Positions 1 through 52,822 are shown, numbered from the stretch's first letter. The stretch: 64,000 bases of DNA from a phage (GCA_036252695.1 GCA_036252695.1_4122.1); one strand, 5' to 3'. The notes: generated by a model not told the origin, from the sequence alone. Numbers and translations: made by a program.

Positions 1-255
1 CAAAATGAGCAATCAGGATTTCGTTCCATCCATGTTGAATACAAAGGTAATACTGTAGTTGCAATTATTGCTAACAAAACTCTAGGAAACTGGACTGCAC
101 AGGTTGTTCCTATGGGATATTCTTACACATCTGATGAGGTACAATTCCTGGCTGAACTATATCGCCAAGTGCCGTTTATCATTAATGTACTAGAAGGTAA
201 TGATACATTATCACATGCAGATGTGATTAATTTTCTTGGAAACTTGCATGTGTGA
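1..255 (+). CDS. 3' end of an upstream gene (partial)
   Basis: Frame-1 reading frame open from the window edge to a TGA near 253-255; no start codon inside the window. Confidence 0.35.
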   Translation, partial: QNEQSGFRSIHVEYKGNTVVAIIANKTLGNWTAQVVPMGYSYTSDEVQFLAELYRQVPFIINVLEGNDTLSHADVINFLGNLHV

Positions 256-535
256 TGAAATAAATCTTACAGGATATTTTTTACAAGAATCAATGATTAA
301 ATTTAGTGAAAAATTTTCAGTACTGGATGGTATCGAAATGTGGCATGTCAAACCACTGTTCCACACTTTCAGTAAAGAGCACAAAATGTTATTGACTGAA
401 GCGAGTAAATCAAATAACATATGTGAAATCAAAATTGGTGTAAATGTCTATAAAGGGATGGTTATCTTTTTTGACAATAACAGCAACTACTTTTATATTG
501 TTAAGGAGCATTACGTTGACAAATACAAATACTAA
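236..535 (+). CDS. hypothetical protein
   Basis: 99-aa ATG-initiated ORF on the coding strand, compact overlap with neighbours. Confidence 0.4.
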   Translation: METCMCDEINLTGYFLQESMIKFSEKFSVLDGIEMWHVKPLFHTFSKEHKMLLTEASKSNNICEIKIGVNVYKGMVIFFDNNSNYFYIVKEHYVDKYKY

Positions 536-1130
536 TACATACTTCCGTTATCTTCGCTTAGGTCTTTCCCTACGTCCGATCCGTGGAAAGTGCGATTCAC
601 TCGCTGACCTTGACTATGCATATGCATTACATCATGAAGGTGTACAGTATGTATTGGGTGATTATGGTGAATTTGAAGAAACAAATGACAGTACTGGAAT
701 TAATGCTGGTGTAGAAAATCTTAACAACATTGCTAACAGTTCTCGCCATGACATTGTGTTACAGATTCAAAACTTTATTGAGCAGCACACAGGTAAACGT
801 GTTTGGTGCTATGTCGGTACTGATGCACAAATGTCAATTTCATTCGGTAACGATGAAGGATATGTTGCACAGCTTATTATGGATTTTGAATCTGAAGAGA
901 AGTTTTTAGAATTCAAAGAAAAGATTATTCAGTCACTTGTTGATATGGGTATCCCCGAAGATAAAATGCCAGAAGTTCAAAACATTGATGAATTTGTTTT
1001 GATTCCATCTGATGAGAAATATGATGCAATGTTTACTGCTCTTAATATTCCAGGAGTTATTGTGGAGTACTTTGATGATGGTGATGATAGTATCTATATC
1101 GATCTAGATGACGATGACGACGATGAATAA
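444..1130 (+). CDS. hypothetical acidic protein (start uncertain)
   Basis: 228-aa ORF ending in a poly-Asp/Glu tail (DLDDDDDDE); the N-terminal ~30 codons overlap the previous ORF and are low complexity, so the true start is probably downstream. Confidence 0.45.
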   Translation: MSIKGWLSFLTITATTFILLRSITLTNTNTNTYFRYLRLGLSLRPIRGKCDSLADLDYAYALHHEGVQYVLGDYGEFEETNDSTGINAGVENLNNIANSSRHDIVLQIQNFIEQHTGKRVWCYVGTDAQMSISFGNDEGYVAQLIMDFESEEKFLEFKEKIIQSLVDMGIPEDKMPEVQNIDEFVLIPSDEKYDAMFTALNIPGVIVEYFDDGDDSIYIDLDDDDDDE

Positions 1131-1137
1131 TGTACAT

Positions 1138-1166
1138 AGCCCGACATAAGTTCGGGCTATTTTTGT
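1138..1166 (+). terminator. rho-independent terminator
   Basis: Hairpin agcccga-loop-tcgggct followed by a T-run, directly after the stop of the acidic protein gene. Confidence 0.5.
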
Positions 1167-1176
1167 AAGGGGATAT

Positions 1177-1452
1177 ATGAATTATAAAGTTCTACAATAT
1201 ACATACAGTGTTTTGTTTGATTTACATCACAATGGAAGATATCTCAATACAATACGAGAAAACACATTCACTCATACTATCTGGATTAATCACTTAATAA
1301 TGATACGTGAATATTTTGTTAATAGTGAGATAATCATTCGTGGTAAAAAACAGAAGATAGAACAAGTTAATAGTTTTGGTGGTAAATTAGTACTATCATT
1401 TATAGATAGTAATACTAATGAAAGATATAGTATAGATTTGGTGGACATATGA
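1177..1452 (+). CDS. hypothetical protein, small paralog family
   Basis: 91-aa ORF; shares overall pattern with neighbouring small ORFs (N-terminal aromatic-rich helix, central Gly-Lys motif). Confidence 0.5.
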   Translation: MNYKVLQYTYSVLFDLHHNGRYLNTIRENTFTHTIWINHLIMIREYFVNSEIIIRGKKQKIEQVNSFGGKLVLSFIDSNTNERYSIDLVDI

Positions 1453-1715
1453 ATTATAAAGATTTCCTACTAACATACAAGATTATTCGAGATTTAGCAC
1501 ACGACAATGATAGCCCTAGTCTAGAAGACACATGCACTGAAATGATTCATACAATTCGTGGTAAGATTAAAAAAAAATTCAGTACTGTTATTATTGGTGA
1601 TGACCATGCAGAATTTTCTGATATAATCATTAGACGTGATGGTAAAGTTGAGGTTCAGTACTACACTGATTTTGGATTTACCAGTATTCCGTTGGAGATA
1701 TTCCCTTGGGATTAA
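1449..1715 (+). CDS. hypothetical protein, small paralog family
   Basis: 88-aa ORF with ATGA stop-start overlap with the previous gene; N-terminus MNYK.. like the preceding ORF. Confidence 0.5.
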   Translation: MNYKDFLLTYKIIRDLAHDNDSPSLEDTCTEMIHTIRGKIKKKFSTVIIGDDHAEFSDIIIRRDGKVEVQYYTDFGFTSIPLEIFPWD

Positions 1716-2017
1716 ATTTAAATGATATACAATTCACTTATAAGATCCTATATGATTTGTATGATGTATACCTTGTTAGTAACAAAATAGGTTCACATAA
1801 CCCATACAAAGAACAACCATTTATTGATTTATATATTGAGTACTTAGATTCAGTAGGTGAATATATAAAAAAGAATTACAGTACTTTTATCGACGGAAAT
1901 GATATATTCGAGTTCTCTGGAGTTAAATCATACAATGGGATTATCCATGTTGAATTTCTTGAAATAACCGATAGGGGATTTATCGAGATTAAAGTTGTGA
2001 AGTTGGTGAATTTATAA
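1706..2017 (+). CDS. hypothetical protein, small paralog family
   Basis: 103-aa ORF; N-terminal LNDIQFTYK motif shared with the next ORF. Confidence 0.5.
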   Translation: MGLNLNDIQFTYKILYDLYDVYLVSNKIGSHNPYKEQPFIDLYIEYLDSVGEYIKKNYSTFIDGNDIFEFSGVKSYNGIIHVEFLEITDRGFIEIKVVKLVNL

Positions 2018-2027
2018 GAGGTTACAT

Positions 2028-2339
2028 ATGTTATTAAATGATATACAATTCACATACAAATTTTTGTATATCCAATACGCTACGGTTGATGCTGGAGAAT
2101 ATCTCTACGGTGAAATCTATCGTTCGGTATGGATAAAGTTTTTGGATGAATTACATGAATATTACCATGATTTGTGTATAGTTCGTGATAATAAAATATA
2201 CAAATTCCGCGATATTGTTAGTCATAGCGGTAAGCTACGATTGGAATTAAGTACTGATAGTGATGTTGATTGGATTGGTGTAAATTTACTGGAGTTGGAG
2301 AATGAAAAACAACTTAAAGGAAATACAAGTATTTTATAA
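2028..2339 (+). CDS. hypothetical protein, small paralog family
   Basis: 103-aa ORF; MLLNDIQFTYKFLY N-terminus is a near-duplicate of the preceding ORF. Confidence 0.5.
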   Translation: MLLNDIQFTYKFLYIQYATVDAGEYLYGEIYRSVWIKFLDELHEYYHDLCIVRDNKIYKFRDIVSHSGKLRLELSTDSDVDWIGVNLLELENEKQLKGNTSIL

Positions 2340-2586
2340 ATTCTTATACTTGTCATATGTAAAAGATGAGTACTATGAAAGTGTGTATTATTTTTTATGG
2401 CAACATTACCGTACTATAGTAAGAGATTTATATATAGGAAAATCTATCATATCCAATGGTGAAAAATGTATATGTACTGATGTTGTTAGTTTTAATGGTT
2501 CTTTAACACTGTGTTTCAGATGCGATAATAATAATGGGTCATTTTCATTAAACGTATATCAGTTAGAAGGAATAAATTTTGAATAA
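2302..2586 (+). CDS. hypothetical protein, small paralog family
   Basis: 94-aa ORF with LYIGKSII motif. Confidence 0.45.
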   Translation: MKNNLKEIQVFYKFLYLSYVKDEYYESVYYFLWQHYRTIVRDLYIGKSIISNGEKCICTDVVSFNGSLTLCFRCDNNNGSFSLNVYQLEGINFE

Positions 2587-2779
2587 ATGTCCATATTGTA
2601 ACAGTACTCAATTAGCTCGTTTCCGTTTAGATTCAGACTGGGCGACTGGTGCTGGTGATTTCTTCCCTATTAATGATGATGCAGAATACACCGAAGAACA
2701 GCACAAAGATTTTGATAAATCATGGCGACCTGACATTGAGTGCATTTATTGCCTTAATTGTGAGCGTGTTCATGACTAA
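2579..2779 (+). CDS. small zinc-ribbon protein
   Basis: 66-aa ORF with CPYC ... CIYCLNC cysteine pairs. Confidence 0.45.
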   Translation: MNKCPYCNSTQLARFRLDSDWATGAGDFFPINDDAEYTEEQHKDFDKSWRPDIECIYCLNCERVHD

Positions 2780-3035
2780 AGCTGAACTAATAGTTCATAC
2801 ATATAAAATGATATCAAGTACTGAGTTATCATATAGTGCAGATAATCCAGTACTGGATTATTTTGTTGAATTATTGAAAGAGCATTATATTGGTAAATCA
2901 CTGATTCTTAATAATATTAATTTCACGGTAAAGGATGTAGCACCTGGAAAAAACGTACTAATAGTATGTGTTACTTCATCTGATAACCCAGTATACCCAA
3001 TATCAATAATTTTTGAGATATTAGGAGATTTATGA
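2772..3035 (+). CDS. hypothetical protein, small paralog family
   Basis: Internal ATG of ORF 2649..3035, overlapping the previous stop (ATGA); contains KEHYIGKSLIL motif. Confidence 0.45.
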   Translation: MTKAELIVHTYKMISSTELSYSADNPVLDYFVELLKEHYIGKSLILNNINFTVKDVAPGKNVLIVCVTSSDNPVYPISIIFEILGDL

Positions 3036-3322
3036 ATATCATTTTAATGCAGAAAACATATGCTATATTGGTGAAAGATTATTCCATTACTTTCGATTCA
3101 CAAGAAAGTGCTCTACATAACCTATACAAAAACGTAACACAAGAATACAGAAATATGTTTTCTGACTTAGTAGTAGGAAGGTATTTCAGTACTAGAAAAT
3201 ACCCAAAACTTCAAATAGTTGATGTTTCTTTTTATTTCAATGGTCATATTACTATTCATAGTTTAGACCAAGATTCAACAACGTACTTAAACTTTTCATT
3301 TGATGAGGTAACATTTTTATGA
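3032..3322 (+). CDS. hypothetical protein
   Basis: 96-aa ORF, ATGA overlap with the upstream gene. Confidence 0.5.
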   Translation: MNIILMQKTYAILVKDYSITFDSQESALHNLYKNVTQEYRNMFSDLVVGRYFSTRKYPKLQIVDVSFYFNGHITIHSLDQDSTTYLNFSFDEVTFL

Positions 3323-3495
3323 GAACAGTATTTTTTATCTGGAGTCTTTTTTCATTGGCAGTACTGACAGTATGTGGGATTTGTTTCCTTTCATCAATTA
3401 ATACTTGGTATATCAATTTACTATTTCCATTTGTCGGTGTTGGATTAGGATTTACTTTACATAGTGTATGTAAGGATTACAATGAGAACAAATGA
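3319..3495 (+). CDS. small hydrophobic membrane protein
   Basis: 58-aa ORF absent from the supplied track (below its size cutoff); two hydrophobic segments; ATGA overlap with the upstream gene. Confidence 0.3.
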   Translation: MRTVFFIWSLFSLAVLTVCGICFLSSINTWYINLLFPFVGVGLGFTLHSVCKDYNENK

Positions 3496-3760
3496 AGTAC
3501 TTGTTGCTGAAACAATGAAGATGATTTACGATATCACGTCAGCACAGAATATGCCATATCCAACTAAGTCTTTATTGAGGACTGTGTATCTGGGGATAGT
3601 ACAGGAGTACTACAAATCCAAGCACAGAAGCATTATTAGTGTTTATCGTGATTATGAAAGGATTCGTATTTTATTCTGGAACAAGAATCGAGTACGTTCT
3701 GAATGTGATCTAGTAGATTTTAAATTAGAGAATCTTTATTGCTATAAACAGGGACAATAG
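3482..3760 (+). CDS. hypothetical protein
   Basis: ATG at 3482 preceded by AAGGA; reading frame of track ORF 3464..3760. Confidence 0.45.
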   Translation: MRTNEVLVAETMKMIYDITSAQNMPYPTKSLLRTVYLGIVQEYYKSKHRSIISVYRDYERIRILFWNKNRVRSECDLVDFKLENLYCYKQGQ

Positions 3761-3779
3761 TCTAATTCATGATATAATA
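3751..3779 (+). promoter_or_regulatory. sigma70-like early promoter (GGGACA -35, TGaTATAAT extended -10)
   Basis: gggaca, 16-nt spacer, TG-a-tataat; same architecture recurs at four other sites. Confidence 0.5.
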
Positions 3780-3818
3780 ATGGGTAAGGAACAATAATTA
3801 ACACAAGGAGTGTGTGAA

Positions 3819-4547
3819 ATGCTTGACCGTATCCGTTTCGCTACAGAGATGGCGAATGAATTAAACATGGCAAATTTCCAAATGTTAACATCAGTAATGG
3901 CTGAACATGCATGTGCTTATTCTGTAAGTGGTGTGCAGTGTGGTCAGGAGAATATGTTAGCAGATGTTTATAGTGAAGTACAAAGTAAGCAATATAGTGT
4001 AAAGACATATAAGGATAAGTTTGTTAGTCTTTATATGAACGAAGATATTGCCGAAGACCGCAAATTCACTGATTTTATTATTGAACGCCGAGTATCAGGT
4101 GTATCTAATCCTAATGCATCAAGCGATGAAGTTTTTGCAGAAGTACTGAAAGATATATACGAAAATGAATTAAAAAGTAAGAATCATTACAATGTACGTG
4201 AAACTAACACAGTGCTCTTGGGATATGATGAAGACGAAGAATACTATTATTTTCGTATGACTGAAGTTCCTTTTGAATACAAATCTCCATATACAACTAC
4301 AGTGAAAGAATTTACTGAAAAAAGTAAAAACTTTATGAAGCATGAAGGAAATCGTTGTAGTATAAATGGTTATGACGAAAATGGCATTCACATTTATGAA
4401 TGGGTTCACCCAAATTGTCAGACATACACTCGTTGCTTGAAAAAACGTTATAATTTAGAAGAGCATGAATCATTCTATTTTAAAGTTAAGAAGCAAGGTT
4501 ATACTCGCCCCGCCGATTCTGAATTGATGGGTATGATATATTTCTAA
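3819..4547 (+). CDS. hypothetical protein
   Basis: ATG at 3819 preceded by AAGGAG with 8-nt spacing; ~243 aa, downstream of the promoter. Confidence 0.6.
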   Translation: MLDRIRFATEMANELNMANFQMLTSVMAEHACAYSVSGVQCGQENMLADVYSEVQSKQYSVKTYKDKFVSLYMNEDIAEDRKFTDFIIERRVSGVSNPNASSDEVFAEVLKDIYENELKSKNHYNVRETNTVLLGYDEDEEYYYFRMTEVPFEYKSPYTTTVKEFTEKSKNFMKHEGNRCSINGYDENGIHIYEWVHPNCQTYTRCLKKRYNLEEHESFYFKVKKQGYTRPADSELMGMIYF

Positions 4548-4557
4548 GGAAACTTCT

Positions 4558-4839
4558 ATGGATTTTTATCTACACACATGGACATACGAACAATATATTA
4601 CATTATATCTTGAAATTATTAACACAGAACCTAGGTGTGGTTGTAGGTTCGCAGATATCATAAAAGAGTATGCTGACGAGTTCGAGTTTGTGTATCTTGG
4701 GTCTGATATATTTGTAAAAAGTGTAGGTAAAACCGGACGAATCACTGATATAGATTACGACACTGTTAGTGTGAATTTCTATGTTGATTTTCCTGATGCT
4801 GGCGTTGATGGTGTATATTGTCTTTATGAAATAATTTAA
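4558..4839 (+). CDS. hypothetical protein
   Basis: 93-aa ORF followed by a terminator. Confidence 0.5.
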   Translation: MDFYLHTWTYEQYITLYLEIINTEPRCGCRFADIIKEYADEFEFVYLGSDIFVKSVGKTGRITDIDYDTVSVNFYVDFPDAGVDGVYCLYEII

Positions 4840-4845
4840 ATTCTT

Positions 4846-4870
4846 AGGCCAGCGTTTGCTGGTCTTTTTT
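4846..4870 (+). terminator. rho-independent terminator
   Basis: ggccagc-gttt-gctggtc hairpin followed by a T-run. Confidence 0.5.
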
Positions 4871-4883
4871 CGCAGGTACAAAG

Positions 4884-5186
4884 ATGTTCAGTATAGATTT
4901 AATTAACAGTACTATCAAAATGTTGGCTGATTTGGTGAGACAATCCAATGGAACTTTATATCCATCAATGTATAAAATGTTTGACCGATACATCAAGGAT
5001 TGTAACATATCATTATATGGACTTGCTGTTGATATAGACGATTACTATGGAATTAATACTTCATATAAAACAGGAATTTTAATTGGTATTAATATAAAGA
5101 TGGGGTATTTACCTTATTACTGTATAGGATTACCAGATAATACTTTTGTAGAATATCCAGCCAGTACTATTAAATTAAGAGGATAA
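4884..5186 (+). CDS. hypothetical protein
   Basis: 100-aa ORF. Confidence 0.5.
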   Translation: MFSIDLINSTIKMLADLVRQSNGTLYPSMYKMFDRYIKDCNISLYGLAVDIDDYYGINTSYKTGILIGINIKMGYLPYYCIGLPDNTFVEYPASTIKLRG

Positions 5187-5193
5187 AACTAAA

Positions 5194-5772
5194 ATGAATG
5201 TATTAGAATTAAGTACTAAGCTGATTAGTATGCGTAATGAGTGGTACGATTGGTTTTATAATGGTACTGATATGGATTTTTCAAAATATCCATTTATGGA
5301 ATCAGGATGTGATGCAAGATACCGCTGGTTGAGCAAAGATTGTTCTGGTTTACATATTCTAGTTGACGATAGTGGTCAGGGAATTATAAAAGATTTACTT
5401 CAAGTTGAACAACTCGTCCATGATAATTGGTGTGATAACGATCCATACCTTGGAAATATGATTTATGTAAGTGAAGATGATTGCATATTCGTTATCCAGC
5501 GTCATGGTAATTCTATGTTTTATGTAGCAGATAGCAGTACTCCAGAAGGTGCAGCAGCCGATGGACTTATGCCTAAGATTGATATATTGGAATTTGGATT
5601 ACCTGAGCACTTCCAGATTAGTACTTTATACGATATTCCACCACTTGAGTTCTTTGAAGAATTTAAATTGTACTACAATGATCTTCAAAAATTGAGTACT
5701 GATCGACGCATTGAAATAACTGTTAAGTACATGGACGGAACGAAATTAACTGATACGGGGATAGAATTTTGA
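5194..5772 (+). CDS. hypothetical protein
   Basis: 192-aa ORF preceded by a GGA-rich RBS. Confidence 0.55.
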   Translation: MNVLELSTKLISMRNEWYDWFYNGTDMDFSKYPFMESGCDARYRWLSKDCSGLHILVDDSGQGIIKDLLQVEQLVHDNWCDNDPYLGNMIYVSEDDCIFVIQRHGNSMFYVADSSTPEGAAADGLMPKIDILEFGLPEHFQISTLYDIPPLEFFEEFKLYYNDLQKLSTDRRIEITVKYMDGTKLTDTGIEF

Positions 5773-6458
5773 TTAAAGATTTAGATAGAATTTTATATGT
5801 ACTAAGGGGTGTAATTACATTACATCCACAAATCAATCGAATTGAAAGTACATTTCAGTTGGAGTCAAGAGAAACTCCATATTCACATATATCAAATGTA
5901 GTTGGTTCACTCAGTACTGAAGACTCGTCTTACGATATTTGTGTATGTGAAGTACAACCAAGTTCGGATCTTGGATTTGCTATTTTTGATAAAGATCAAA
6001 ATCTCATTAGTATGTTTCAGTGCAATAATCCTTTTTGGAAAACATGCCTGTATCCAGAGTGGGCTATGCTTGATCCAACCAAGAGTACCATTAAAGTTTA
6101 TGACTCTAAAAATGATGAAGTCGTTATTGATTTGGATGAGTCAATGTCAGAGGAAGAACACTTTCAGCTAATGATGATGCGTGCTATGCCGGAATACAAT
6201 GCAATGATTAACACTGTGCAATACATTAAGGATACCATGCCAGCGTTGCGTACACATGAGTTTTGTCATCCGGTATTGTATGAACATCTAGATTTAGACT
6301 TCAGTACTATTAAATTTAAAGATAGTGTTAAAAAATATATTCAAGAGAATGTTAAATTTGATTTTATTAGTACTATGAACAATAATCCAAAAACTAATTT
6401 TAGGCATCAGTACAATGAATCTTTGTCTAATGGACGTGATACCAGTTGGTGGAAATAA
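5769..6458 (+). CDS. hypothetical protein
   Basis: 229-aa ORF with stop-start overlap. Confidence 0.55.
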   Translation: MIKDLDRILYVLRGVITLHPQINRIESTFQLESRETPYSHISNVVGSLSTEDSSYDICVCEVQPSSDLGFAIFDKDQNLISMFQCNNPFWKTCLYPEWAMLDPTKSTIKVYDSKNDEVVIDLDESMSEEEHFQLMMMRAMPEYNAMINTVQYIKDTMPALRTHEFCHPVLYEHLDLDFSTIKFKDSVKKYIQENVKFDFISTMNNNPKTNFRHQYNESLSNGRDTSWWK

Positions 6459-6459
6459 T

Positions 6460-6723
6460 ATGAATATTCAAGATAGATTACAATTACTGTACACACTTGA
6501 ACAGGCTGCTTATGATCTTGTTCGAAAAATCTCAGATGAACTACCTAAAGGAACTAAAGTTCGTGTACGTGAGATGAATTATTTTTCTGGAGTAATTGAA
6601 GAACAAGTACTAACAGTGAATAAAGTAACATACTATGAATCTGAGTTGTCTATTCAGTGTGAATCTGATGATGGATTAATATCATATTATGGAACTGATG
6701 TAGATATAGAGGTAATAAAATGA
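6460..6723 (+). CDS. hypothetical protein, small paralog family
   Basis: Internal ATG at 6460 just after the upstream stop; LPKGTKVRVREMNYF motif like other small paralogs. Confidence 0.45.
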   Translation: MNIQDRLQLLYTLEQAAYDLVRKISDELPKGTKVRVREMNYFSGVIEEQVLTVNKVTYYESELSIQCESDDGLISYYGTDVDIEVIK

Positions 6724-7862
6724 CCCTTTTGCAAATATATGAAGATTTAATGCACTTATGTAATACAAACGATGCATTCTTTTATGTGGATCATAAAAGT
6801 CCTGCTGGTGGCACGTATCGTGTATTCAGTTATCGTCTAGCATCATACACTGATTTCATGCAACCAAATGCGTTGGAAACCCGTGGCTCTATGTGGGAAA
6901 TTGATGAAGAAGGTGAAATGATACGTTGTGCAGCACGTACAATGAAAAAGTTCTTCAATGCTTACGAGAATCCTGCTACAATGTTCCCTGCTAACACCAC
7001 ATGCGATGACATTGCGGTAGTGATGCCTAAGTTGGATGGTTCGATTATCAGTACTTACCGTGATAATGATGGTGAGATTCGTTGTAAATCACATACTGCA
7101 TTGTATTCTGACCATGCGATTAACAGTACTCGACTTATTAACGAGAACCAGAATTTGTATCAGTACATCGACGAAGCGGAACGTTTAGGTTACACAGTTA
7201 ATATGGAGTATACAAGCCCAGAGTACCGAATTGTATTACCATATCAGGTAGAACAACTGTTTGTACTGAACGTTCGTCATCGTGTGAGTGGTGAGTTGCT
7301 ATGTGGTAAAGCACTACGTGATAAGTTTCCATGTCTTGCACAGTACAGTACTAATATGACTGGAAAAGATATTCATCACACTTTTCCGGTACGAAATACC
7401 TTCCGTGAAAGCGTGGAGGAAGTTCATAAAATGCTTGATATTGAGGGTTTTGTGTGCATCCTAAATAATGGGACAATGTGTAAAATAAAGACTGACTGGT
7501 ACAGTTCATTACATCTTACAAAAGATAGTATTATTATTGATTCTCATTTATATGAAGCAGTATTAAATGGTTCAAGTGATGATTTAAAACAATTGTTCAG
7601 TACTGATGAATATGCTATGCAAAAGATATTAAGAATGGAACAATTGGTATTTTCGTGCTATAATGCATTACAAGATGAAGTAGAAAGCTTCGTCAAGGAA
7701 CACAAGCACTTGGAGCGAAAGGAATTCGCAATGAAGGTTCAGGAGTGTTTAACTAATGAACTGAATCGTCAGGGCTTGGCCTTTGCAATGTATAACAATA
7801 AGAAAGTTGATTACAAAGAGACTCTTATAAAATACATGAAAATTGTACTAAAGGATTTTTAG
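6720..7862 (+). CDS. rnlA: RNA ligase 1 (T4 gp63-like)
   Basis: 380-aa protein colinear with T4 Rnl1 as recalled: FFYVDHKS..GGTYRVFSY, ETRGSMWEI and the nucleotidyl-lysine motif MPKLDGS. Confidence 0.8.
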   Translation: MTLLQIYEDLMHLCNTNDAFFYVDHKSPAGGTYRVFSYRLASYTDFMQPNALETRGSMWEIDEEGEMIRCAARTMKKFFNAYENPATMFPANTTCDDIAVVMPKLDGSIISTYRDNDGEIRCKSHTALYSDHAINSTRLINENQNLYQYIDEAERLGYTVNMEYTSPEYRIVLPYQVEQLFVLNVRHRVSGELLCGKALRDKFPCLAQYSTNMTGKDIHHTFPVRNTFRESVEEVHKMLDIEGFVCILNNGTMCKIKTDWYSSLHLTKDSIIIDSHLYEAVLNGSSDDLKQLFSTDEYAMQKILRMEQLVFSCYNALQDEVESFVKEHKHLERKEFAMKVQECLTNELNRQGLAFAMYNNKKVDYKETLIKYMKIVLKDF

Positions 7863-7892
7863 TACTATCTAGCCTAAGCACAAGGAGAAGTG

Positions 7893-8147
7893 ATGGCTAA
7901 ACCTAAGTATAAAAATGACGGTTCCCTTTCTCCGACTGAGTTCAGGAAAATACAAGAAGAAATCGATGAATTACAGCACAAACGCTCAATGAAAGGTGTG
8001 AAGATAAGTAAGAAACGAATCGAGAATACCTTCGGATGTAGTAGTACTGAATACAAGAAGAAAAGGAAACCAAAAGGTGTTAAGCCGAGAATACATGATG
8101 TAACTCGCTATACATCGAAACGTGAAAATAAATTTGACCCACTATAA
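7893..8147 (+). CDS. hypothetical basic protein
   Basis: ATG at 7893 after AAGGAG; Lys/Arg-rich 85-aa product. Confidence 0.5.
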   Translation: MAKPKYKNDGSLSPTEFRKIQEEIDELQHKRSMKGVKISKKRIENTFGCSSTEYKKKRKPKGVKPRIHDVTRYTSKRENKFDPL

Positions 8148-8156
8148 GGAGTTCAT

Positions 8157-8393
8157 ATGAAAGTTGAAGTTCAGCATAGTATTGTTCAGGATATGTCAGT
8201 AGTTAAATTTCTTTCCTTGAAAGATTATTTCAGATGTATCAAGTTCCTAGAAGAATCTCAATTACAGTGGACCCCATTAAAGTACAGTTCATCCAATGAT
8301 ACTGCTAGTATTCGTTGTGATGAATCTGTACTTGTGAAAATCTCCAAGCGATTTGGAGTTGGGAAATATAATGATAAACAATGCACAAAGTAA
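8157..8393 (+). CDS. hypothetical protein
   Basis: 78-aa ORF. Confidence 0.45.
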   Translation: MKVEVQHSIVQDMSVVKFLSLKDYFRCIKFLEESQLQWTPLKYSSSNDTASIRCDESVLVKISKRFGVGKYNDKQCTK

Positions 8394-8682
8394 TTTACTA
8401 TATATAAAGTCAGTAGAAGCTGAAATTAAAAATTCAGTACAAACTATCGTCGATGAAATGATTGACAAATACAAGAGCAATCTTATTGGGAAGAAAGTCA
8501 GATGTTGGGATTACACATTTAAACACTGGTACGATTCCGAGATTGTGAAAGTTGATGTGAATACTGATAGTAATGGTCTAATTAATGGTATTGCGTATAT
8601 TGGTGTTTTAATACGAAAGGGAACACCACAGGAATGGCTCACCTATCATAATATAGAGCATGTTAAATTTTTAGAGGATTAA
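8371..8682 (+). CDS. hypothetical protein, small paralog family
   Basis: ATG at 8371; LIGKKVRCWDY motif; overlaps the previous ORF, so one of the two starts is uncertain. Confidence 0.45.
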   Translation: MINNAQSNLLYIKSVEAEIKNSVQTIVDEMIDKYKSNLIGKKVRCWDYTFKHWYDSEIVKVDVNTDSNGLINGIAYIGVLIRKGTPQEWLTYHNIEHVKFLED

Positions 8683-8685
8683 AGG

Positions 8686-9618
8686 ATGCCAACTATCACA
8701 CTAACAGTTGGATTGCCTGGGTGTGGTAAAACTACATGGGCAGTGCAAGAGATTAAAAAAGCCAAATCCAAGACTATCAACATCAACCGTGATGATATTC
8801 GTGAATCTATGGCTGGGTCACATGATGCTTACAAATTCAACGATGCTAATGAGCAGTACGTAGATAATTTACAGTTCAGTGCAGCAAATTCAGCAGCAGA
8901 GAATGGTTGGAACATCATAGTATCCGATACAAACCTTAAACCACATTTCCGTAATCTCTGGAAAGTATGGGCTACAGATAATGGTTATGATTACAAAGAA
9001 AAGAACTTCTATGATGATTTTGTACCTAATGAAGACCGTGGTGCAGATGTTCATGAATTCTTTAAGATTAAAGAGTTCGTAAAACTTTGTAAGAAATATA
9101 ACCTCCAGCGTGAGCGTTCAGTACCAGATGATATCATTGACAAAATGGCAGATACGTACTATTATAGTAAAGCATTACACATTGGTTACTATGGTAATTC
9201 ACGCGAAGCTGCTATCATCGTTGATATCGATGGAACTCTTGCTCATAAATGGGGTCGTAATCCTTACGATGAAAGTACTGTTCTTCAGGATACACCTGAT
9301 GAAGAAGTTATTTTGTCTATTATCGCTGAAGCAGTTTTTCATAAACGCAAGATTATCGTCATGAGTGGGCGTACTGAAGGGTGTCGTGCGGATACCGAAC
9401 AGTGGCTTAAGAATTGGGGTGTTCCTTACGATGCATTGTTTATGCGAGATATCGATGATAAACGTCCTGATGATGTTGTAAAATTCGACCTGTACATGAA
9501 AAATGTGGTTGATCATTACGATGTTAAAAAGGTATATGATGACCGCGATCAAGTTGTATTCATGTGGCGTAAGCTACTTGGGTTGAAAGTTTTCCAAGTG
9601 GCTGAAGGAAATTTCTAA
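8686..9618 (+). CDS. pseT: polynucleotide 5'-kinase / 3'-phosphatase
   Basis: N-terminal Walker A (GLPGCGKTT) kinase module and C-terminal DxDGT (VDIDGTLA) HAD-type phosphatase module; colinear with T4 Pnk; GAGGA RBS. Confidence 0.85.
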   Translation: MPTITLTVGLPGCGKTTWAVQEIKKAKSKTININRDDIRESMAGSHDAYKFNDANEQYVDNLQFSAANSAAENGWNIIVSDTNLKPHFRNLWKVWATDNGYDYKEKNFYDDFVPNEDRGADVHEFFKIKEFVKLCKKYNLQRERSVPDDIIDKMADTYYYSKALHIGYYGNSREAAIIVDIDGTLAHKWGRNPYDESTVLQDTPDEEVILSIIAEAVFHKRKIIVMSGRTEGCRADTEQWLKNWGVPYDALFMRDIDDKRPDDVVKFDLYMKNVVDHYDVKKVYDDRDQVVFMWRKLLGLKVFQVAEGNF

Positions 9619-9624
9619 TACAAA

Positions 9625-9654
9625 AGGGATCATATATTGGTCCCTTTTTCTTTT
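9625..9654 (+). terminator. rho-independent terminator
   Basis: 8-bp stem hairpin (agggatca / tggtccct) followed by a T-run after the pnk stop. Confidence 0.5.
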
Positions 9655-9685
9655 AAGGTACATTATAGTGAATGTAACAACACAG

Positions 9686-9844
9686 ATGTTATTACAAAAA
9701 GACTACTTAGAAAATATAGAACGATACTATAGATTGTCTTTGTATGAAAATAAGCATAAAAATTATAGTTTTGATAAACTACTAAATTCCAGTACTGATG
9801 ATTATCTATTTTCATCAATGTTTTATGTGAGAGGTTTATTATAA
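9686..9844 (+). CDS. possible small ORF (52 aa)
   Basis: ORF below the track cutoff in the 225-bp gap after the terminator; no clear RBS. Confidence 0.2.
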   Translation: MLLQKDYLENIERYYRLSLYENKHKNYSFDKLLNSSTDDYLFSSMFYVRGLL

Positions 9845-10104
9845 TGGATAAATTTCACACAGATATAACACAGATAGGTAATCTTATCAATAGTCTAATT
9901 ACTGATTTAGAAGAAAAGTACTTAGGTCGAAATGTATACGTAGAAATGTATGAAACATATGGTGTTATTGATATGATTTATTACAGTGCATTGAAGTGTG
10001 AAATACGTTTAACAGTATGTTTGTTTGAAAAAAATACATTCAACAGAAGTACTGCAATTCGCCAAGTTGGAGTTGATGATATAGAATTATACGAGGAACA
10101 ATGA
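9844..10104 (+). CDS. hypothetical protein, small paralog family
   Basis: 86-aa ORF with EEKYLGRNVYVEMY motif. Confidence 0.5.
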   Translation: MDKFHTDITQIGNLINSLITDLEEKYLGRNVYVEMYETYGVIDMIYYSALKCEIRLTVCLFEKNTFNRSTAIRQVGVDDIELYEEQ

Positions 10105-10355
10105 TGTTTGAGCAGGACTTAGAGATATTCAAAAGTCATATTGATTACTTGACTATATTAGAAAATGATTTAACTACAAAGTACAAAGGCATTCGTGTTC
10201 TGTGCTGGTATGATGATTGGGATTATAAACGTGAACTCACGATTGATCGAATTTATTTCAGTGACGGTGTACTAAATGTACATGGTGTAAATGATTTTGG
10301 TCATTCATATACATATTCTAATAATGCTAAATTTAAAAGGATCTACAATGAATGA
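10101..10355 (+). CDS. hypothetical protein, small paralog family
   Basis: 84-aa ORF, ATGA overlap; TTKYKGIRVLCWYD motif. Confidence 0.5.
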   Translation: MMFEQDLEIFKSHIDYLTILENDLTTKYKGIRVLCWYDDWDYKRELTIDRIYFSDGVLNVHGVNDFGHSYTYSNNAKFKRIYNE

Positions 10356-10650
10356 ATATTATCATAATTTATTCGATTACATAAAACTAATAGATGATCT
10401 TTCTTTTGAATTTCTCAGTACTGAAAAAGTTCTTGAACCTCTCTATTATGATTGTATTAGTTCACTATGTTTAGATGAAAAAGAGATATTAGCAAACAAC
10501 TTACCATCCACGGTCTGTACAATCAATGGTTCCAAGGCATTAGTGTGCGAGGTTAATTTTCATAAATCACTTAATACAATTGTTTACAAGTTCGATAACA
10601 CTTGGGTAAATCATGTAACCAGTAATATTAAATCTGTGAGATTTTTATGA
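10348..10650 (+). CDS. hypothetical protein
   Basis: ATG at 10348 after AAAAGGA, overlapping the upstream stop. Confidence 0.45.
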   Translation: MNEYYHNLFDYIKLIDDLSFEFLSTEKVLEPLYYDCISSLCLDEKEILANNLPSTVCTINGSKALVCEVNFHKSLNTIVYKFDNTWVNHVTSNIKSVRFL

Positions 10651-10943
10651 ATATAAAAAAATTATTTGAACAAGTAAATTTATTGTACTGGTGTTCAGAC
10701 GGTTCAGATAAGGAATATAGTGAAGTTTATTTAGAACTGTTTAGAACTGAAATTCATCAAATTCGAAGATACCTAATTGATAACAAAACTAAAGTACAAG
10801 TAAGATACCATAACGGTACTTTAAAGAATGGTGTAATTATTGGATTGATAGTTACACGAATGTCTAATAATATTAAAGTTGCAGTTAGATTAATGACTGA
10901 TGATGGTGTCTACACAATAGAAGCTAGTGAGATTATATATTAA
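10647..10943 (+). CDS. hypothetical protein
   Basis: 98-aa ORF with stop-start overlap. Confidence 0.5.
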   Translation: MNIKKLFEQVNLLYWCSDGSDKEYSEVYLELFRTEIHQIRRYLIDNKTKVQVRYHNGTLKNGVIIGLIVTRMSNNIKVAVRLMTDDGVYTIEASEIIY

Positions 10944-11249
10944 ATGGATATACAAACATTCAATAAACTTAAGTACTATGATGATGGTTTTGCATTAATA
11001 ATTAACGAACTTGATGGAATACCATACGAATATCATAATCAAGTAATGAAGATAATAAAATGTATATGTGAAGAATTAAAAAGTATATTTAAAAATGAAT
11101 ATGTTTATGATTTAGGTAATAATAGCAAAAAACTATACATAAAGAAATTCTGGGGAACGCATTGCGGTTTGATGGTCGATTTAGGTTTAAGTTTAGACGA
11201 TAATTCTGAATCATGTTCATTATATATAGATGAAATGCGAATATCATGA
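10944..11249 (+). CDS. hypothetical protein
   Basis: 101-aa ORF. Confidence 0.5.
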   Translation: MDIQTFNKLKYYDDGFALIINELDGIPYEYHNQVMKIIKCICEELKSIFKNEYVYDLGNNSKKLYIKKFWGTHCGLMVDLGLSLDDNSESCSLYIDEMRIS

Positions 11250-11306
11250 GACGTATCAGAATTCGGTGATATAATTTGATTACATCACCAATAGGGAGAA
11301 GTTGAA

Positions 11307-11633
11307 GTGAATGGTTCGTTTTTAACAATATTAGAAAAGACAACCGAGATGCTTTCTAGCTCGTTAATGCAGATTTTCAGTACTAATAATTTATACAATA
11401 CCCAGGTGTTAGATTCAATTAATAATAACTATGTGGTAAGTATATCTGATGAAATATGTCCATTTAACGCGTATTCAATTTATAGTGTAGAAGAGTTTCA
11501 TATATCCGAGATTCGATGTGGTTTTGGTGCTTGGTTAGTTCTAAATGAACGTTCAGGGTTGTCTTTATACATCGAAGAAGTTAGTAAATTTATATACAAA
11601 GGAGTAGAATATGTTAACCCCAATTATTCTTAG
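11307..11633 (+). CDS. hypothetical protein (GTG start)
   Basis: 108-aa ORF; GTG preceded by AGGGAG; weak extended -10 (TGATATAAT) about 35 nt upstream. Confidence 0.45.
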   Translation: MNGSFLTILEKTTEMLSSSLMQIFSTNNLYNTQVLDSINNNYVVSISDEICPFNAYSIYSVEEFHISEIRCGFGAWLVLNERSGLSLYIEEVSKFIYKGVEYVNPNYS

Positions 11634-12240
11634 CAGTGCATATGTAATCGGTATTATTATTTCTGGTATGCTTGCATATAACTATAACCGAAGTGTTCTA
11701 GGTTATGTAGTACTTGGTACAGTACTAAGTCCAGTGATTGCCATTGGTCTTCTTGTTATGCTAGGTGAGAAAAATACAAGCTTCTTTATTACTAAAGAAC
11801 TTGATAAAATCACTCCAGCACCAGAAACAGTTATTCCAGAAGTTAAAGAAGAAGTTAAAGAAGTTGAAGTTCAAATGCAAGTTAAAGTGTATAATACACT
11901 TGAAGAAACTGATCCTAAAGTTGTAGTGAATGTAGTTCCAGTCGTTGAAGATGTGAAACCAAAAGCTCCTAAAGTACAGAAAAATACTAAAACTGCAAAG
12001 AAAGCTCGTTACACTAAAGGTAAGAACAAAGGTAAATCTAAGGATGAACCACAACTAGGTGTTCATGACCATACTGCACAAATTGCAACGGCAGCGACCG
12101 CAGCAGCAATCGTAACATCACCAATCTACAACAATGATGATTACAGTGATTATAGCCGTCACAGCAGTTCTTCCTCTGATTCTTGTTCCTATGATAGCTC
12201 TAGTTCTGATTCAAGTTCATCGTCTGGAAGTTGTGATTAA
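11611..12240 (+). CDS. membrane protein with low-complexity tail
   Basis: Two N-terminal hydrophobic segments, then PEVKEE repeats and a Ser/Asp-rich C-terminus; AAAGGAG RBS. Confidence 0.55.
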   Translation: MLTPIILSSAYVIGIIISGMLAYNYNRSVLGYVVLGTVLSPVIAIGLLVMLGEKNTSFFITKELDKITPAPETVIPEVKEEVKEVEVQMQVKVYNTLEETDPKVVVNVVPVVEDVKPKAPKVQKNTKTAKKARYTKGKNKGKSKDEPQLGVHDHTAQIATAATAAAIVTSPIYNNDDYSDYSRHSSSSSDSCSYDSSSSDSSSSSGSCD

Positions 12241-12569
12241 TGTCAATGAAACCACTAATTCAACATAATATTTTTTATAGGTCATTATTCAAAATTCAAG
12301 ATGATTTTTATCAGACGTTGAGTAATGATCTTATAGGTAAAACTGTACGATATTCGGAACAATACATCAAACGTATGACAAGTGAGTATATTGACCCTGA
12401 ATACGAATACGACATTGAACACATTAATCCCAATACTAGAATGAAAATCATTGAGATATTTAAGAATGGGAGAACTATAGGTGCTGAAATTGAGTACTTG
12501 AATTGTGATTGTTACATAGATACCGAGTTAAGTTTGGATTATCTTGTTTTAGTGGATGATGAGGAATAA
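12240..12569 (+). CDS. hypothetical protein, small paralog family
   Basis: 109-aa ORF with LIGKTVRYSEQY motif. Confidence 0.5.
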   Translation: MSMKPLIQHNIFYRSLFKIQDDFYQTLSNDLIGKTVRYSEQYIKRMTSEYIDPEYEYDIEHINPNTRMKIIEIFKNGRTIGAEIEYLNCDCYIDTELSLDYLVLVDDEE

Positions 12570-12571
12570 TT

Positions 12572-12787
12572 ATGATAACATTTTTTGCAATATATGGTTT
12601 TGTAGCATTTGTTACATTTATAACCAACTTTCTAGTACTTAATTGGGGTTGTTTTAAAGATGAAATCATGATTATCATGAATCTCCAAACAGCAGCACTG
12701 ATGGCTATTATTTGGCCTGTAACATTAGTATATATTTTTATTTCACTTACCCAAGATATTATTAACAAATATAAGAGAAAGAAATAA
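12572..12787 (+). CDS. small membrane protein
   Basis: 71-aa ORF with two hydrophobic helices. Confidence 0.45.
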   Translation: MITFFAIYGFVAFVTFITNFLVLNWGCFKDEIMIIMNLQTAALMAIIWPVTLVYIFISLTQDIINKYKRKK

Positions 12788-13038
12788 TGTTCAACACTGA
12801 CTTATCACATTTGCGATATCTTATGTCTTTGGCTGATGATTTTATAAATGATCTGAAGCCAAAATATATTGGTCAAGAAGTACGATTAATAAACTCCAGA
12901 GGGTATGGAAAGTATATTATTACTGATATGTATATTAGTGGTGGTGAATGGCGTTTTAAAATTAATACTTATCTTAAAGATGGTTCTTTTGCTGGAACAC
13001 AAGTTACTAAACACACTAATATTATATGGTTGGAGTAA
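12787..13038 (+). CDS. hypothetical protein, small paralog family
   Basis: 83-aa ORF with KPKYIGQEVRLIN motif. Confidence 0.5.
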   Translation: MFNTDLSHLRYLMSLADDFINDLKPKYIGQEVRLINSRGYGKYIITDMYISGGEWRFKINTYLKDGSFAGTQVTKHTNIIWLE

Positions 13039-13040
13039 TA

Positions 13041-13784
13041 ATGAAACACTTCTTAGAAGTAACTGTACCTGATGATAAAGATTTATACATTGTAGGTGAT
13101 TTGCATGGTAATGGTAAACTATGGGATGCTACAGTGAAAGAATTTGGTATTACACACAATGATTATGTTTTCAGTGTAGGTGATATTATCGACCGTGGAG
13201 AACAAAATTCAAAGCTCCTTTTTGAATTTTTGTTCGGAGAAAATCGTTACATGATTGCGGGTAATCATGAGATGATGTGCGTTGATTCGGAAACACTTCG
13301 AGATTGGTATCATTGTTGGATAAGTAATGGTGGTGATAAATTCCTTGATGAAGTTGGAGGAACAGGCATTCAATTCTTTCGTCAGTACTTAAAGGATCTC
13401 CCTATGATTATCCAAATCAATCACCGAGGATTGAAGATTGGGTTAGTTCATGCTGGAGTTCCGTTGGAATATACAACATGGGAACGATTTGTTAATGGGA
13501 CAAAATCACTTAGTGCTGATATAATTGATAAGTGCTTGTGGGATAGAAAAACATTCGATTATTGTAGAACTAATAATACATATTATGCACCTAAGTTAGA
13601 TGGAGTGCATTGTGTCTTTAGTGGACATACAGCAGTTACAGACCCACTCATTTACGGTAATCGCATTTGGATTGATAGTCAGTTCTTGACGGGTGACTTA
13701 ACTCTCGCTACTCCACAAAGTGGTGGGATGAGATACTTACGTAAAGAAAAAGATGAGTACTCATTCAATCGTTTCAAAAGGTAA
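13041..13784 (+). CDS. Ser/Thr protein phosphatase (calcineurin-like metallophosphoesterase)
   Basis: GDLHG, GDIIDRG and GNHE metal-binding motifs in canonical order; ATG at 13041 after GGAG. Confidence 0.75.
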   Translation: MKHFLEVTVPDDKDLYIVGDLHGNGKLWDATVKEFGITHNDYVFSVGDIIDRGEQNSKLLFEFLFGENRYMIAGNHEMMCVDSETLRDWYHCWISNGGDKFLDEVGGTGIQFFRQYLKDLPMIIQINHRGLKIGLVHAGVPLEYTTWERFVNGTKSLSADIIDKCLWDRKTFDYCRTNNTYYAPKLDGVHCVFSGHTAVTDPLIYGNRIWIDSQFLTGDLTLATPQSGGMRYLRKEKDEYSFNRFKR

Positions 13785-13789
13785 TAATT

Positions 13790-14059
13790 ATGCATGATGT
13801 AGTTAAAAAATATTTGAATGATAGATATATTATGAAAAAATCTATTAATTCTATCCTAAAAGACCATGCAAATCAAATACGTGAGATTCTATCAAATAAA
13901 CTTATTGGTTGTTCAGTTGAGTTCAACTACAAAAAGAATGTCGTGAAGGTTGGAGTTATTAAACGTGTAGTTGCTGTTTATGACCAAGATGTATATGTTG
14001 AAATAGAATATGATGGTAAATTATCACAATTAAGTACTGAAGATTTAACATTTTTATAA
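13790..14059 (+). CDS. hypothetical protein, small paralog family
   Basis: 89-aa ORF with SNKLIGCSVEF motif. Confidence 0.5.
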   Translation: MHDVVKKYLNDRYIMKKSINSILKDHANQIREILSNKLIGCSVEFNYKKNVVKVGVIKRVVAVYDQDVYVEIEYDGKLSQLSTEDLTFL

Positions 14060-14069
14060 GGAAATAGAA

Positions 14070-14297
14070 ATGAAAGTAATTCAAGTTATGGTAGAAAAAT
14101 ACCAAACTGAAGATGGTCGTATTTTTGATTCAGCTAAACAAGCTGAACACCATGAACGTATTATTTCTGGTGCACGTAAAGTATGTCCTACATGTAATGG
14201 AACACAACAAGTACCGTCAGAAGATTACCGCAGCTTTTATGCTTGTCCACACTGTGATGGGAAAGGCTACGTAGAAAAACAAGAGGTATGGAAATGA
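14070..14297 (+). CDS. small zinc-ribbon protein
   Basis: 75 aa with CPTC ... CPHC cysteine pairs. Confidence 0.45.
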   Translation: MKVIQVMVEKYQTEDGRIFDSAKQAEHHERIISGARKVCPTCNGTQQVPSEDYRSFYACPHCDGKGYVEKQEVWK

Positions 14298-14707
14298 AAT
14301 TGTATTGCTTAACTAATATGTACTGCCAAGGTGTCCAAGCTGGTATTCAAGCATTCCATGCTGGTGTTAAACTAATTAAAGAATATGAAGGTACTGCTTT
14401 CAGTACTATTATTGATGAATGGTACTATGAACACGAAACTATTGTAGTACTAAATGCTGGTGGACATGATAAGTTAAATTCTTATTATAACAACCTTAGC
14501 AAACAGGGAAAAGTTCCGTTTGCCAAATTCAATGAAGCTGGATTGAATGATGCTATTACCTGTGTAGCAGTACTGTGTACGTCTGAAATGATTGAAGACA
14601 TGGCTGTTATGCGTATGAATCTTCCTGCTGGTGATCAACTAATGCAAGTAAAATATGGTGCATTGTTTGACACATTAAAAGCAATCAGTACAATGAGGAC
14701 TATTTGA
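14288..14707 (+). CDS. hypothetical protein
   Basis: 139-aa ORF with stop-start overlap. Confidence 0.5.
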   Translation: MEMKLYCLTNMYCQGVQAGIQAFHAGVKLIKEYEGTAFSTIIDEWYYEHETIVVLNAGGHDKLNSYYNNLSKQGKVPFAKFNEAGLNDAITCVAVLCTSEMIEDMAVMRMNLPAGDQLMQVKYGALFDTLKAISTMRTI

Positions 14708-41215: not shown

Positions 41216-41231
41216 ATTAAGGAAAAGAAAG

Positions 41232-44595: not shown

Positions 44596-44601
44596 TGAGG
44601 A

Positions 44602-52782: not shown

Positions 52783-52811
52783 GAGAGTCGCTATGACTCT
52801 CCTTTTATTTT
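52783..52811 (+). terminator. rho-independent terminator
   Basis: Perfect ggagagtc-gctat-gactctcc hairpin followed by a T-run; overlaps the first codons of track ORF 52793. Confidence 0.55.
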
Positions 52812-52822
52812 GGAGAAATAAT

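Follow-up and report, generated by a model that had tools for sequence, protein, structure and literature searches.

Positions 1,177 to 14,059 of a 64,000-nucleotide (nt) stretch of phage DNA (GCA_036252695.1; the whole stretch is called the window here) carry arrays of small open reading frames (ORFs), named below by their first position. We consider it reasonably likely that they encode a lineage-specific tandem superfamily of small helix-plus-barrel proteins, probably non-enzymatic, pre-late binding modules. An earlier note, made from the sequence alone, had proposed a family of about 15 small paralogs in this place. Similarity beyond composition and beyond matched controls was indeed found by BLASTP, hhalign and hidden Markov model (HMM) comparison. 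Instead of a single family, however, two robust subfamilies, A and B, emerged, whose union is probable but not proven. All 14 ORFs of the earlier list are present at their coordinates (83-109 amino acids, aa) and are supported as members. The list was remarkably accurate; its omissions are 10348 and probably 3482. The region holds no fewer than 14 copies, probably 16, and the number may be as high as about 20. Based on megablast and blastn, the window comes from an Asteriusvirus jumbo myovirus of E. coli, with 98-99% identity to G17, 121Q and PBECO4 and 100% identity to phAPEC6 over 1100-8000.

With one sequence per paralog the relationship is only partly visible. BLASTP comparison of all 117 plus-strand ORFs of the window against each other gave one solid cluster, formed by 1177, 1449, 1706, 2028 and 2302 (E 4e-5 to 7e-7), and outside this core A a weak link between 9844 and 12787 (E 0.007). 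HMMs built from window sequences alone stalled at 5+2 members, with 3032 and 2772 added marginally. In PHROGs, each ORF except 2302 belongs to its own tiny family of unknown function (E 1e-44 to 1e-75; phrog_21004, 32291, 35943, 33961, 28826, 28139, 31355, 29519, 33398, 28558, 29135, 37322 and 38615), and cross-hits occur only inside core A; for 2302 there are none but weak ones, to phrog_32291 and phrog_21004 (E about 1e-4). Searches of Pfam, NCBIfam and PDB sequences gave no significant match for the family, in line with the earlier note, which could not place it in a named one. Because BLASTP, window-only HMMs, PHROGs and Pfam stop at these core links, a '15-member family' is not demonstrable from single sequences.

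Syntenic loci were taken from EC.P1, TH47, A4, Turkey5, RaK2, CBB, 7t3, GAP32 and BF, and ortholog alignments of each of 28 small ORFs were compared pairwise with hhalign. A null of reversed profiles reached a maximum of 18.5, which is too lenient, because reversal destroys the helix-then-strand order. As stricter controls, 39 families of unrelated small ORFs from 14-64 kb of the window were used at matched ortholog depth. Their ceiling was 23.9 over 1,092 test-control pairs, and only four pairs scored 20 or more. The all-against-all profile comparison, a check that the earlier note had proposed, gave links above this ceiling, and shuffled and reversed controls scored far below true family comparisons. 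Transitive links were taken from stringent two-round HMM searches (E<1e-4). On this basis subfamilies A and B are each robust.

Subfamily A consists of 1177, 1449, 1706, 2028, 2302, 2772, 3032 and 10348, all on the plus strand like every member below. In core A, hhalign probability was 83-100% in nine of ten pairs with scores of 33-239; the tenth pair, 1177-1449, gave 49% and 27.0. ORF 1177 (1177-1452, 91 aa, phAPEC6 gp389c) matches 2302 by BLASTP (E 4e-6) as well as 2028 and 2302 by hhalign (99.9-100%), and falls into phrog_32291 with a cross-hit to phrog_21004. ORF 1449 (1449-1715, 88 aa) is linked to 1706 (BLASTP E 4e-5, hhalign 99.9%), and 1706 (1706-2017, 103 aa, TTG start, phrog_21004) to 2028 (BLASTP E 7e-7). 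The latter (2028-2339, 103 aa) was modelled, as described below, and 2302 (2302-2586, 94 aa, YIGKSI motif) matches it at 100% in hhalign. More divergent is 2772 (2772-3035, 87 aa, YIGKSL motif), which scores 27-30 to three core members, above the noise ceiling, and whose profile recruits the Turkey5 core-A gene L003_9081 (E<1e-4). Likewise divergent, 3032 (3032-3322, 96 aa) is connected through its EC.P1, A4 and TH47 orthologs, which core-A profiles recruit at E<1e-4. ORF 10348 (10348-10650, 100 aa) is an A-type gene inside a B-rich array. It scores 24.4 to 1177 and above all controls against profile A, and its EC.P1 ortholog is recruited by the 1177 profile (E<1e-4). A probable A-like member absent from the earlier list is 3482 (3482-3760, 92 aa), which scores 29.6 to the merged A profile with 64% probability over about 85 columns, the control maximum being 17.3.

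Subfamily B consists of 6460, 8371, 9844, 10104, 12240 and 12787. Most links converge on 12787 (12787-13038, 83 aa, YIGQEV motif), the second ORF that was modelled. Its hhalign scores are 35.8 (89%) to 9844 (9844-10104, 86 aa, YLGRNV motif), 29.3 to 8371 (8371-8682, 103 aa, LIGKKV motif, directly upstream of pseT), 27.7 to 10104 (10104-10355, 83 aa, YKGIRV motif, listed as 10101 in the earlier note) and 25.0 to 12240 (12240-12569, 109 aa, with an acidic insert and a LIGKTV motif). In addition, 9844 and 10104 score 27.2, and 8371 and 10104 score 25.8. The 12787 profile recruits 8371, and the profiles of both recruit the A4 ortholog of 12240 (E<1e-4). ORF 6460 (6460-6723, 87 aa) lies directly upstream of rnlA and is linked via RaK2 ORF463, which occupies the same position, is matched by the 6460 family (HMM E 1.8e-5, hhalign 26.7) and is also picked up with the 8371 profile (E<1e-4). 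The 9844 profile furthermore recruits RaK2 ORF473.

Several candidate links were discarded. Looser iteration (E<0.005, pooled loci) drifted into the cytidylyltransferase (E about 0.002-0.02) and a metallophosphoesterase; consequently, matches at E about 0.01 in the small pooled database were counted as noise, including those that outscored shuffled decoys. A BLAST link of 10101 to an approximately 130-aa protein of all Rak2-like phages gave an HMM E of 0.01 against 0.001 for a reversed decoy. Expansion of the 13790 profile was dropped because it drew in low-complexity sequence of the membrane protein 11611, and the KVP40 link given for 13790 by the phAPEC6 annotators was not reproduced, as tblastn matches were confined to Asteriusvirus.

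Structure prediction with AlphaFold2 (AF2), likewise proposed in the earlier note, was run on one member of each subfamily. The model of 2028, based on a 23-sequence alignment, is confident (pLDDT 85, pTM 0.74) and contains helices at residues 3-19 and 22-45, strands at 50-53, 56-66, 69-75 and 82-86, a helical turn and a last strand at 94-96. The best model of 12787 (16 sequences, pLDDT 82) has one helix at 2-27, strands at 31-34, 42-51, 54-62 and 68-75, a turn and a strand at 79-81. Past the last helix, order and lengths of the elements agree in both models. The predicted fold is thus one in which N-terminal helices, two in the A model and one in the B model, pack on a five-stranded SH3/Sm-like small beta-barrel. 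Searched against BFVD, model A matches significantly only other small proteins of these phages, among them a 96-aa slurp01 protein (TM-score 0.70/0.75, 16% identity, E 1.5e-4), probably orthologous to 3032. Many phage proteins match model B in the barrel only; three RaK2 proteins match it as well and, at a Foldseek E of about 0.012-0.022, so do T4-type 'MotB' and 'transcriptional regulator' entries. No recurring KOW, LSM, Tudor, SH3 or S1 Pfam signal was found across 40 members. The only KOW (PF00467) hit, in 4558 (1 of 40), reached E 0.1 with 12.9 bits, below the gathering score of 22.3. LSM/Hfq profiles gave no match at E up to 10 in the same 40 members, nor was there a PDB sequence match.

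The earlier note had described its family by an aromatic-rich N-terminus and a shared central motif. The former is not distinctive, since aromatic residues make up 13% there and 11.5% in control small ORFs. The motif, written as [YLIV][ILKV]G[KRQICS].[VIL], is real, because its occurrences exceed those in shuffled sequences and in the rest of the window. It is found 10 times in the small ORFs of the region (2302, 2772, 4558, 4884, 8371, 9844, 10104, 12240, 12787 and 13790) against a mean of 0.97 in shuffles (maximum 5 in 500). Its density is 12-fold that of the rest of the window, and it is found in none of the window's other small ORFs. In nine of the ten it lies at residues 26-46, including 4558, which carries YLGSDI at the junction position; in 4884 (LIGINI) it is at residue 66. 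However, five members (1177, 1449, 1706, 2028 and 3032) lack the strict form, and the motif is insufficient alone for homology. In both AF2 models it corresponds to the end of the last helix and the start of beta1. The best, non-significant PDB matches of the B profile carry it at a junction of this type, too: 'LVGKKVRIG' in FtsY and 'KKRYAGCEVRC' in a helix-strand-strand peptide that was designed de novo. The motif represents a generic glycine cap at the C-terminal end of a helix, followed by the start of a beta-strand, and not a functional site.

Regarding the union of both subfamilies, we hold it quite likely that A and B are homologous. Merged A (37 sequences) against merged B (29 sequences) gave an hhalign score of 25.7, the control maxima being 17.3 for A and 14.7 for B, and the aligned part runs from the last helix through the glycine motif and the barrel. 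The best single bridge, 2302-12787, scored 25.8 against the 23.9 ceiling. ORF 13790 (13790-14059, 89 aa, LIGCSV motif) is a probable bridging member, with 27.4 (46%) to A and 27.2 (47%) to B. When 40 sequences of both subfamilies were aligned together with MAFFT, the two conserved glycines fell into register, as did the helix cap and the turn of the beta-hairpin. A and B furthermore have identical phyletic distributions and are intermixed in the same arrays. Four more ORFs are possible distant members: 4558 (4558-4839, 93 aa) and 4884 (4884-5186, 100 aa), with 19.5 and 19.4 to A and 17.1 and 14.8 to B, 10647 (10647-10943, 98 aa), with 20.7 to A, and 10944 (10944-11249, 101 aa), with 18.6 to A and 19.3 to B. 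All four score above all controls yet are individually weak, 4558 and 4884 only just exceeding the 39 control families with probabilities of at most 6%. The 10944 profile recruits Turkey5 L003_17398, itself a B-profile match at E 1e-3. The remaining small ORFs of the region serve as an internal negative control and behave like the controls: the Zn-ribbon proteins 2579 and 14070, the membrane proteins 3319 and 12572, and 7893, 8157 and 9668. Only 12572 departs from this, through a short match to B (14.0-16.1) that is spurious.

The copies form three translationally coupled arrays, which are delimited by terminators and interspersed with rnlA, pseT and a gene for a Ser/Thr phosphatase. Every gene in 1-16 kb is on the plus strand, and the array region is AT-rich (30-35% GC). 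Strong intrinsic terminators lie just 5' of the first array (1136-1160, 9-bp stem with 5 GC pairs, T-run, annotated in G17), at the end of the first transcription unit (4846-4865, 8-bp stem with 5 GC pairs, T6) and at the junction of pseT and the third array (9622-9648, 11-bp stem, T-run, annotated in G17), all on the plus strand. The order of the anchor genes, namely cytidylyltransferase, a 245-aa protein, rnlA, pseT, Ser/Thr phosphatase and DNA ligase, is kept across the Rak2-like jumbo phages (RaK2, GAP32, CBB, BF and 7t3), and the small ORFs between them vary from genus to genus. Neighbouring paralogs still carry direct DNA repeats at their 5' ends (1718/2034/2314 and 1171/1443), at a spacing of 272-316 nt, which equals one gene unit. 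Among them, 1718-1743 and 2034-2059 (26 nt, 92% identity, 316 nt apart) make the N-terminal near-duplication of 1706 and 2028, pointed out in the earlier note, visible in the DNA itself, and a 54-nt repeat is common to 1449 and the 5' end of 1177. The arrays were generated by repeated tandem duplication. Adjacent paralogy, the head-to-tail layout with its footprints and variation in copy number identify a tandem multigene family, and the earlier description of a rapidly diverging multi-copy tandem family is borne out.

An HMM census, the search in other phages that had also been suggested, counted 14 copies each in the window, G17, EC.P1 and A4, 11 in TH47 and in Turkey5, and at least 6 in RaK2, ORF478 and ORF479 among them. 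None were found in the syntenic regions of CBB, GAP32, BF and 7t3, nor elsewhere in the window. Core A numbers five copies in PBECO4-like phages, EC.P1, TH47 and A4 and three in Turkey5. Since the matches of RaK2 ORF473, ORF478 and ORF479 are independent, the family predates the split of Asteriusvirus and Alcyoneusvirus. In the RaK2 locus (L004; 12726-13010, 17556-17846, 18790-19092 and 19107-19367), ORF473, ORF478 and ORF479 match A or B profiles, and ORF461 looks similar by eye only. In larger databases, A is represented by 21 clusters among 5.8 billion proteins (word-indexed search) and B by 12 representatives among 1.84 billion (exhaustive search). G17, A4 and Turkey5 possess an extra 84-aa ORF without counterpart in the window (L001 8871-9125; between window 8393 and 8371-8682). 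Its '...KEYTGKCIL...' junction motif may mark a further member; no family profile matched it at E<1e-3.

The small ORFs evolve fast under relaxed purifying selection. Compared with EC.P1 and Turkey5, their ratio of nonsynonymous to synonymous substitution rates (dN/dS) is 0.03-0.7, mostly 0.1-0.6, and that of RnlA, PseT and the phosphatase is 0.03-0.10. Relative to Turkey5, the small ORFs retain 30-55% amino acid identity and these three proteins 74-87%. Gene-wide dN/dS never exceeds 1 and thus gives no sign that the family, called 'diversifying' in the earlier note, is so in the sense of positive selection. Divergence is furthermore uneven along the first array: 2028 and 2302 (2028-2586 versus L002 9922-10480) are about 99% identical to EC.P1 with a synonymous rate (dS) near 0, right next to 1177-2017 with a dS near 1, and 2772 shares just 28% identity with its counterpart by position. 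The array is mosaic, which suggests recent recombination within it. Copy-number turnover and mosaic exchange thus occur between Asteriusvirus lineages.

That the region is expressed early, as the earlier note had assumed, is not demonstrated, and a literature search found no Asteriusvirus transcriptome. Several signs are in favour. The element TGATATAAT, an identical sigma-70-type extended -10 promoter element, occurs at 3770-3778 and 11267-11275, inside the region's two widest intergenic gaps, which precede 3819 and 11307. The T4-late-type motif TATAAATA is absent from 1-14500, none of gp361c-gp389c was found in the phAPEC6 virion proteome, and rnlA, pseT and DNA ligase are neighbours. Genes overlap or abut, with Shine-Dalgarno sites and overlapping start and stop codons. 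Acidic proteins account for 12 of the 16 firm and probable members (isoelectric point, pI, 4.4-5.9; net charge -1 to -10), and the others have a pI of 8.0-9.3; the hydropathy of the members (grand average of hydropathy at most 0.36) gives no sign of transmembrane segments. The proteins would be soluble, cytoplasmic and non-structural, and most are acidic.

Several points weigh against one superfamily and would fit an alternative that we regard as somewhat unlikely, namely that two or more unrelated small-protein families expanded separately and share only a fold class and a convergent motif, so that no single 15-member family exists. PHROGs, although built by remote-homology clustering, keeps the ORFs separate outside core A, HMM iteration within the window stalls, and the HH probability is 33% for A-B and about 46% for 13790. 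The motif arises convergently in unrelated proteins, as FtsY and the designed peptide illustrate. The other four models of 12787 are of low confidence (pLDDT 51-67), the fold of model B matches hundreds of unrelated small phage proteins, and the BFVD match lists of both models barely overlap. On the other hand, the A-B and 13790 scores lie 8-12 units above all 39 matched controls, both conserved glycines align, the motif is enriched in this region and missing from the window's other small ORFs, and the subfamilies share their phyletic distribution, with A-type 10348 sitting in a B-rich array. A more radical view, that the ORFs are spurious or non-functional frames in an AT-rich spacer and that their similarity reflects composition or decaying duplicates, is effectively refuted. 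It could draw on the AT-rich sequence and on the phAPEC6 GenBank record, which holds no coding sequence for 2302-2586, 2579-2779, 3319-3495, 9844-10104 and 11307-11633. All of these are annotated in G17; they are conserved, and several are under purifying selection. Against this view, every informative comparison gives a dN/dS well below 1, orthologs are kept in five Asteriusvirus lineages and RaK2, Shine-Dalgarno sites and coupled start and stop codons are present, the AF2 folds are confident, and shuffled or reversed controls score far lower.

If the superfamily reading is accepted, its function has to be considered. Conserved positions are fold-determining only, comprising the two glycines and the hydrophobic core. 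Conservation of fold residues alone, together with fast surface divergence, makes non-enzymatic binding modules the most likely role. The proteins would probably be expressed before the late genes, with each paralog probably engaging a different or variant host or phage macromolecule, and such engagement might serve host takeover, counter-defence or regulation. By analogy, the host-takeover or anti-defence role named in the earlier note is plausible. Gene-wide dN/dS, which gives no sign of positive selection, weighs against the functional reading. A stronger version, in which Asteriusvirus/Alcyoneusvirus duplicated a binder scaffold into an arsenal of 15-20 members, each neutralising a different host factor or defence, seems rather unlikely to us. 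If true, copy turnover and mosaic exchange would mirror the defence repertoire of the respective hosts (E. coli, Klebsiella and Salmonella), and the proteins would form a new, structurally unified anti-defence or host-takeover family. Quite improbable, in our view, is that the members are nucleic-acid-binding small barrels (Sm/Hfq-like rings or KOW/MotB-like) and partners of RnlA and PseT, for example RNA chaperones or nucleoid modifiers. An N-terminal helix followed by a five-stranded bent sheet is the Sm topology, to which the predicted layout would correspond. Two members, 6460 and 8371, lie directly upstream of rnlA and pseT; in T4-like genomes, however, unrelated accessory ORFs typically adjoin these genes as well. 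Model B weakly matches MotB, a DNA-binding protein with an N-terminal KOW/SH3-like domain and a C-terminal OB fold (PMC7827196). Against nucleic-acid binding stand the acidic nature of 12 of 16 members, unusual for such binders, the absence of a recurring LSM, KOW, Tudor or S1 Pfam signal, and the absence of an OB domain as in MotB.

Comparison with known systems places our preferred reading, a tandem superfamily of binding modules, in context. T4 MotB/MotB.1 and the plastic early regions of T4-like phages, with small, non-essential, early-type proteins on a KOW/SH3-like small barrel amid genes of nucleotide metabolism and RNA repair, are comparable to the arrays. In contrast to MotB, the barrel is C-terminal here, after one or two helices, and the proteins are mostly acidic. 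Sequence similarity to MotB is absent and the sole link is the barrel-only Foldseek match, so that the members do not belong to the MotB family. With Sm/LSm/Hfq proteins they would share, by prediction, the order of helix, short beta1, long bent beta2-beta4 and beta5 as well as a Gly-x-x-Val-type junction after the helix, but they carry no Sm1/Sm2 signature, and their acidic charge argues against RNA binding. The RNA polymerase-interacting (Tudor-like) domain of CarD/TRCF is also among the closest known systems. Poxvirus accordions serve as the comparison for tandem gene expansion: multigene families or 'genomic accordions' of large DNA viruses likewise consist of tandem paralogs that diverge and vary in number from one close relative to another, but the divergence here is old (20-30% identity) and not a recent amplification. 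Arrays of accessory-gene paralogs are known in large phages. Genome growth by tandem duplication was described for other genes of phAPEC6 (PMC7247149), and 22 paralogous ORFs were reported for CBB (PMC5259590).

What is new is the family relationship and the fold, which PHROGs does not record, and not the individual genes, which were catalogued before. About 83% of phAPEC6 gene products are without known function (PMC7247149), and all small ORFs listed here are 'hypothetical protein' in the annotations of G17 and phAPEC6. If the superfamily holds, about 16 of the 34 genes of the 13-kb region would be versions of one small fold, and a list of unrelated 'hypotheticals' would turn into a single testable family. 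It would offer a rational candidate set for host-takeover or counter-defence screens in jumbo coliphages that are candidates for therapy. It would further suggest that remote-homology catalogues of the PHROGs type under-merge fast-evolving small proteins. The motif illustrates that a short, striking sequence may mark a junction in the structure without being a functional site.

Besides the arrays, other genes of the window deserve mention. The small Zn-ribbon proteins 2579-2779 and 14070-14297 (CxxC...CxxC) resemble each other (hhalign 26.4). The former has no ortholog in EC.P1, and the latter contains two DnaJ-type CxxCxGxG motifs, its phage A4 ortholog being annotated as 'putative molecular chaperone DnaJ'. 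The 209-aa product of 11611-12240 carries two hydrophobic segments at its N-terminus, followed by a middle part of low complexity, rich in K, E and V, and a tail rich in Ser and Asp. ORF 14288-14707 (139 aa) is a PTH2-like peptidyl-tRNA hydrolase by annotation in relatives (G17 note, Turkey5) and lies near the RNA ligase and polynucleotide kinase genes and, farther on, that of a CCA-adding enzyme, which suggests an RNA/tRNA-repair neighbourhood. Paralogy is also found elsewhere in the window: 37920-40616 and 41142-43961 encode a pair of about 900 aa (27% identity, E 8e-60), and further sets (50135-50407/50428-50784, 44029-45629, 59852-60677, 52793-54409 and 19014-19709/22974-23597) include a small pair of 54% identity, a triplet of about 170-190 aa and two ClpP-like proteins.

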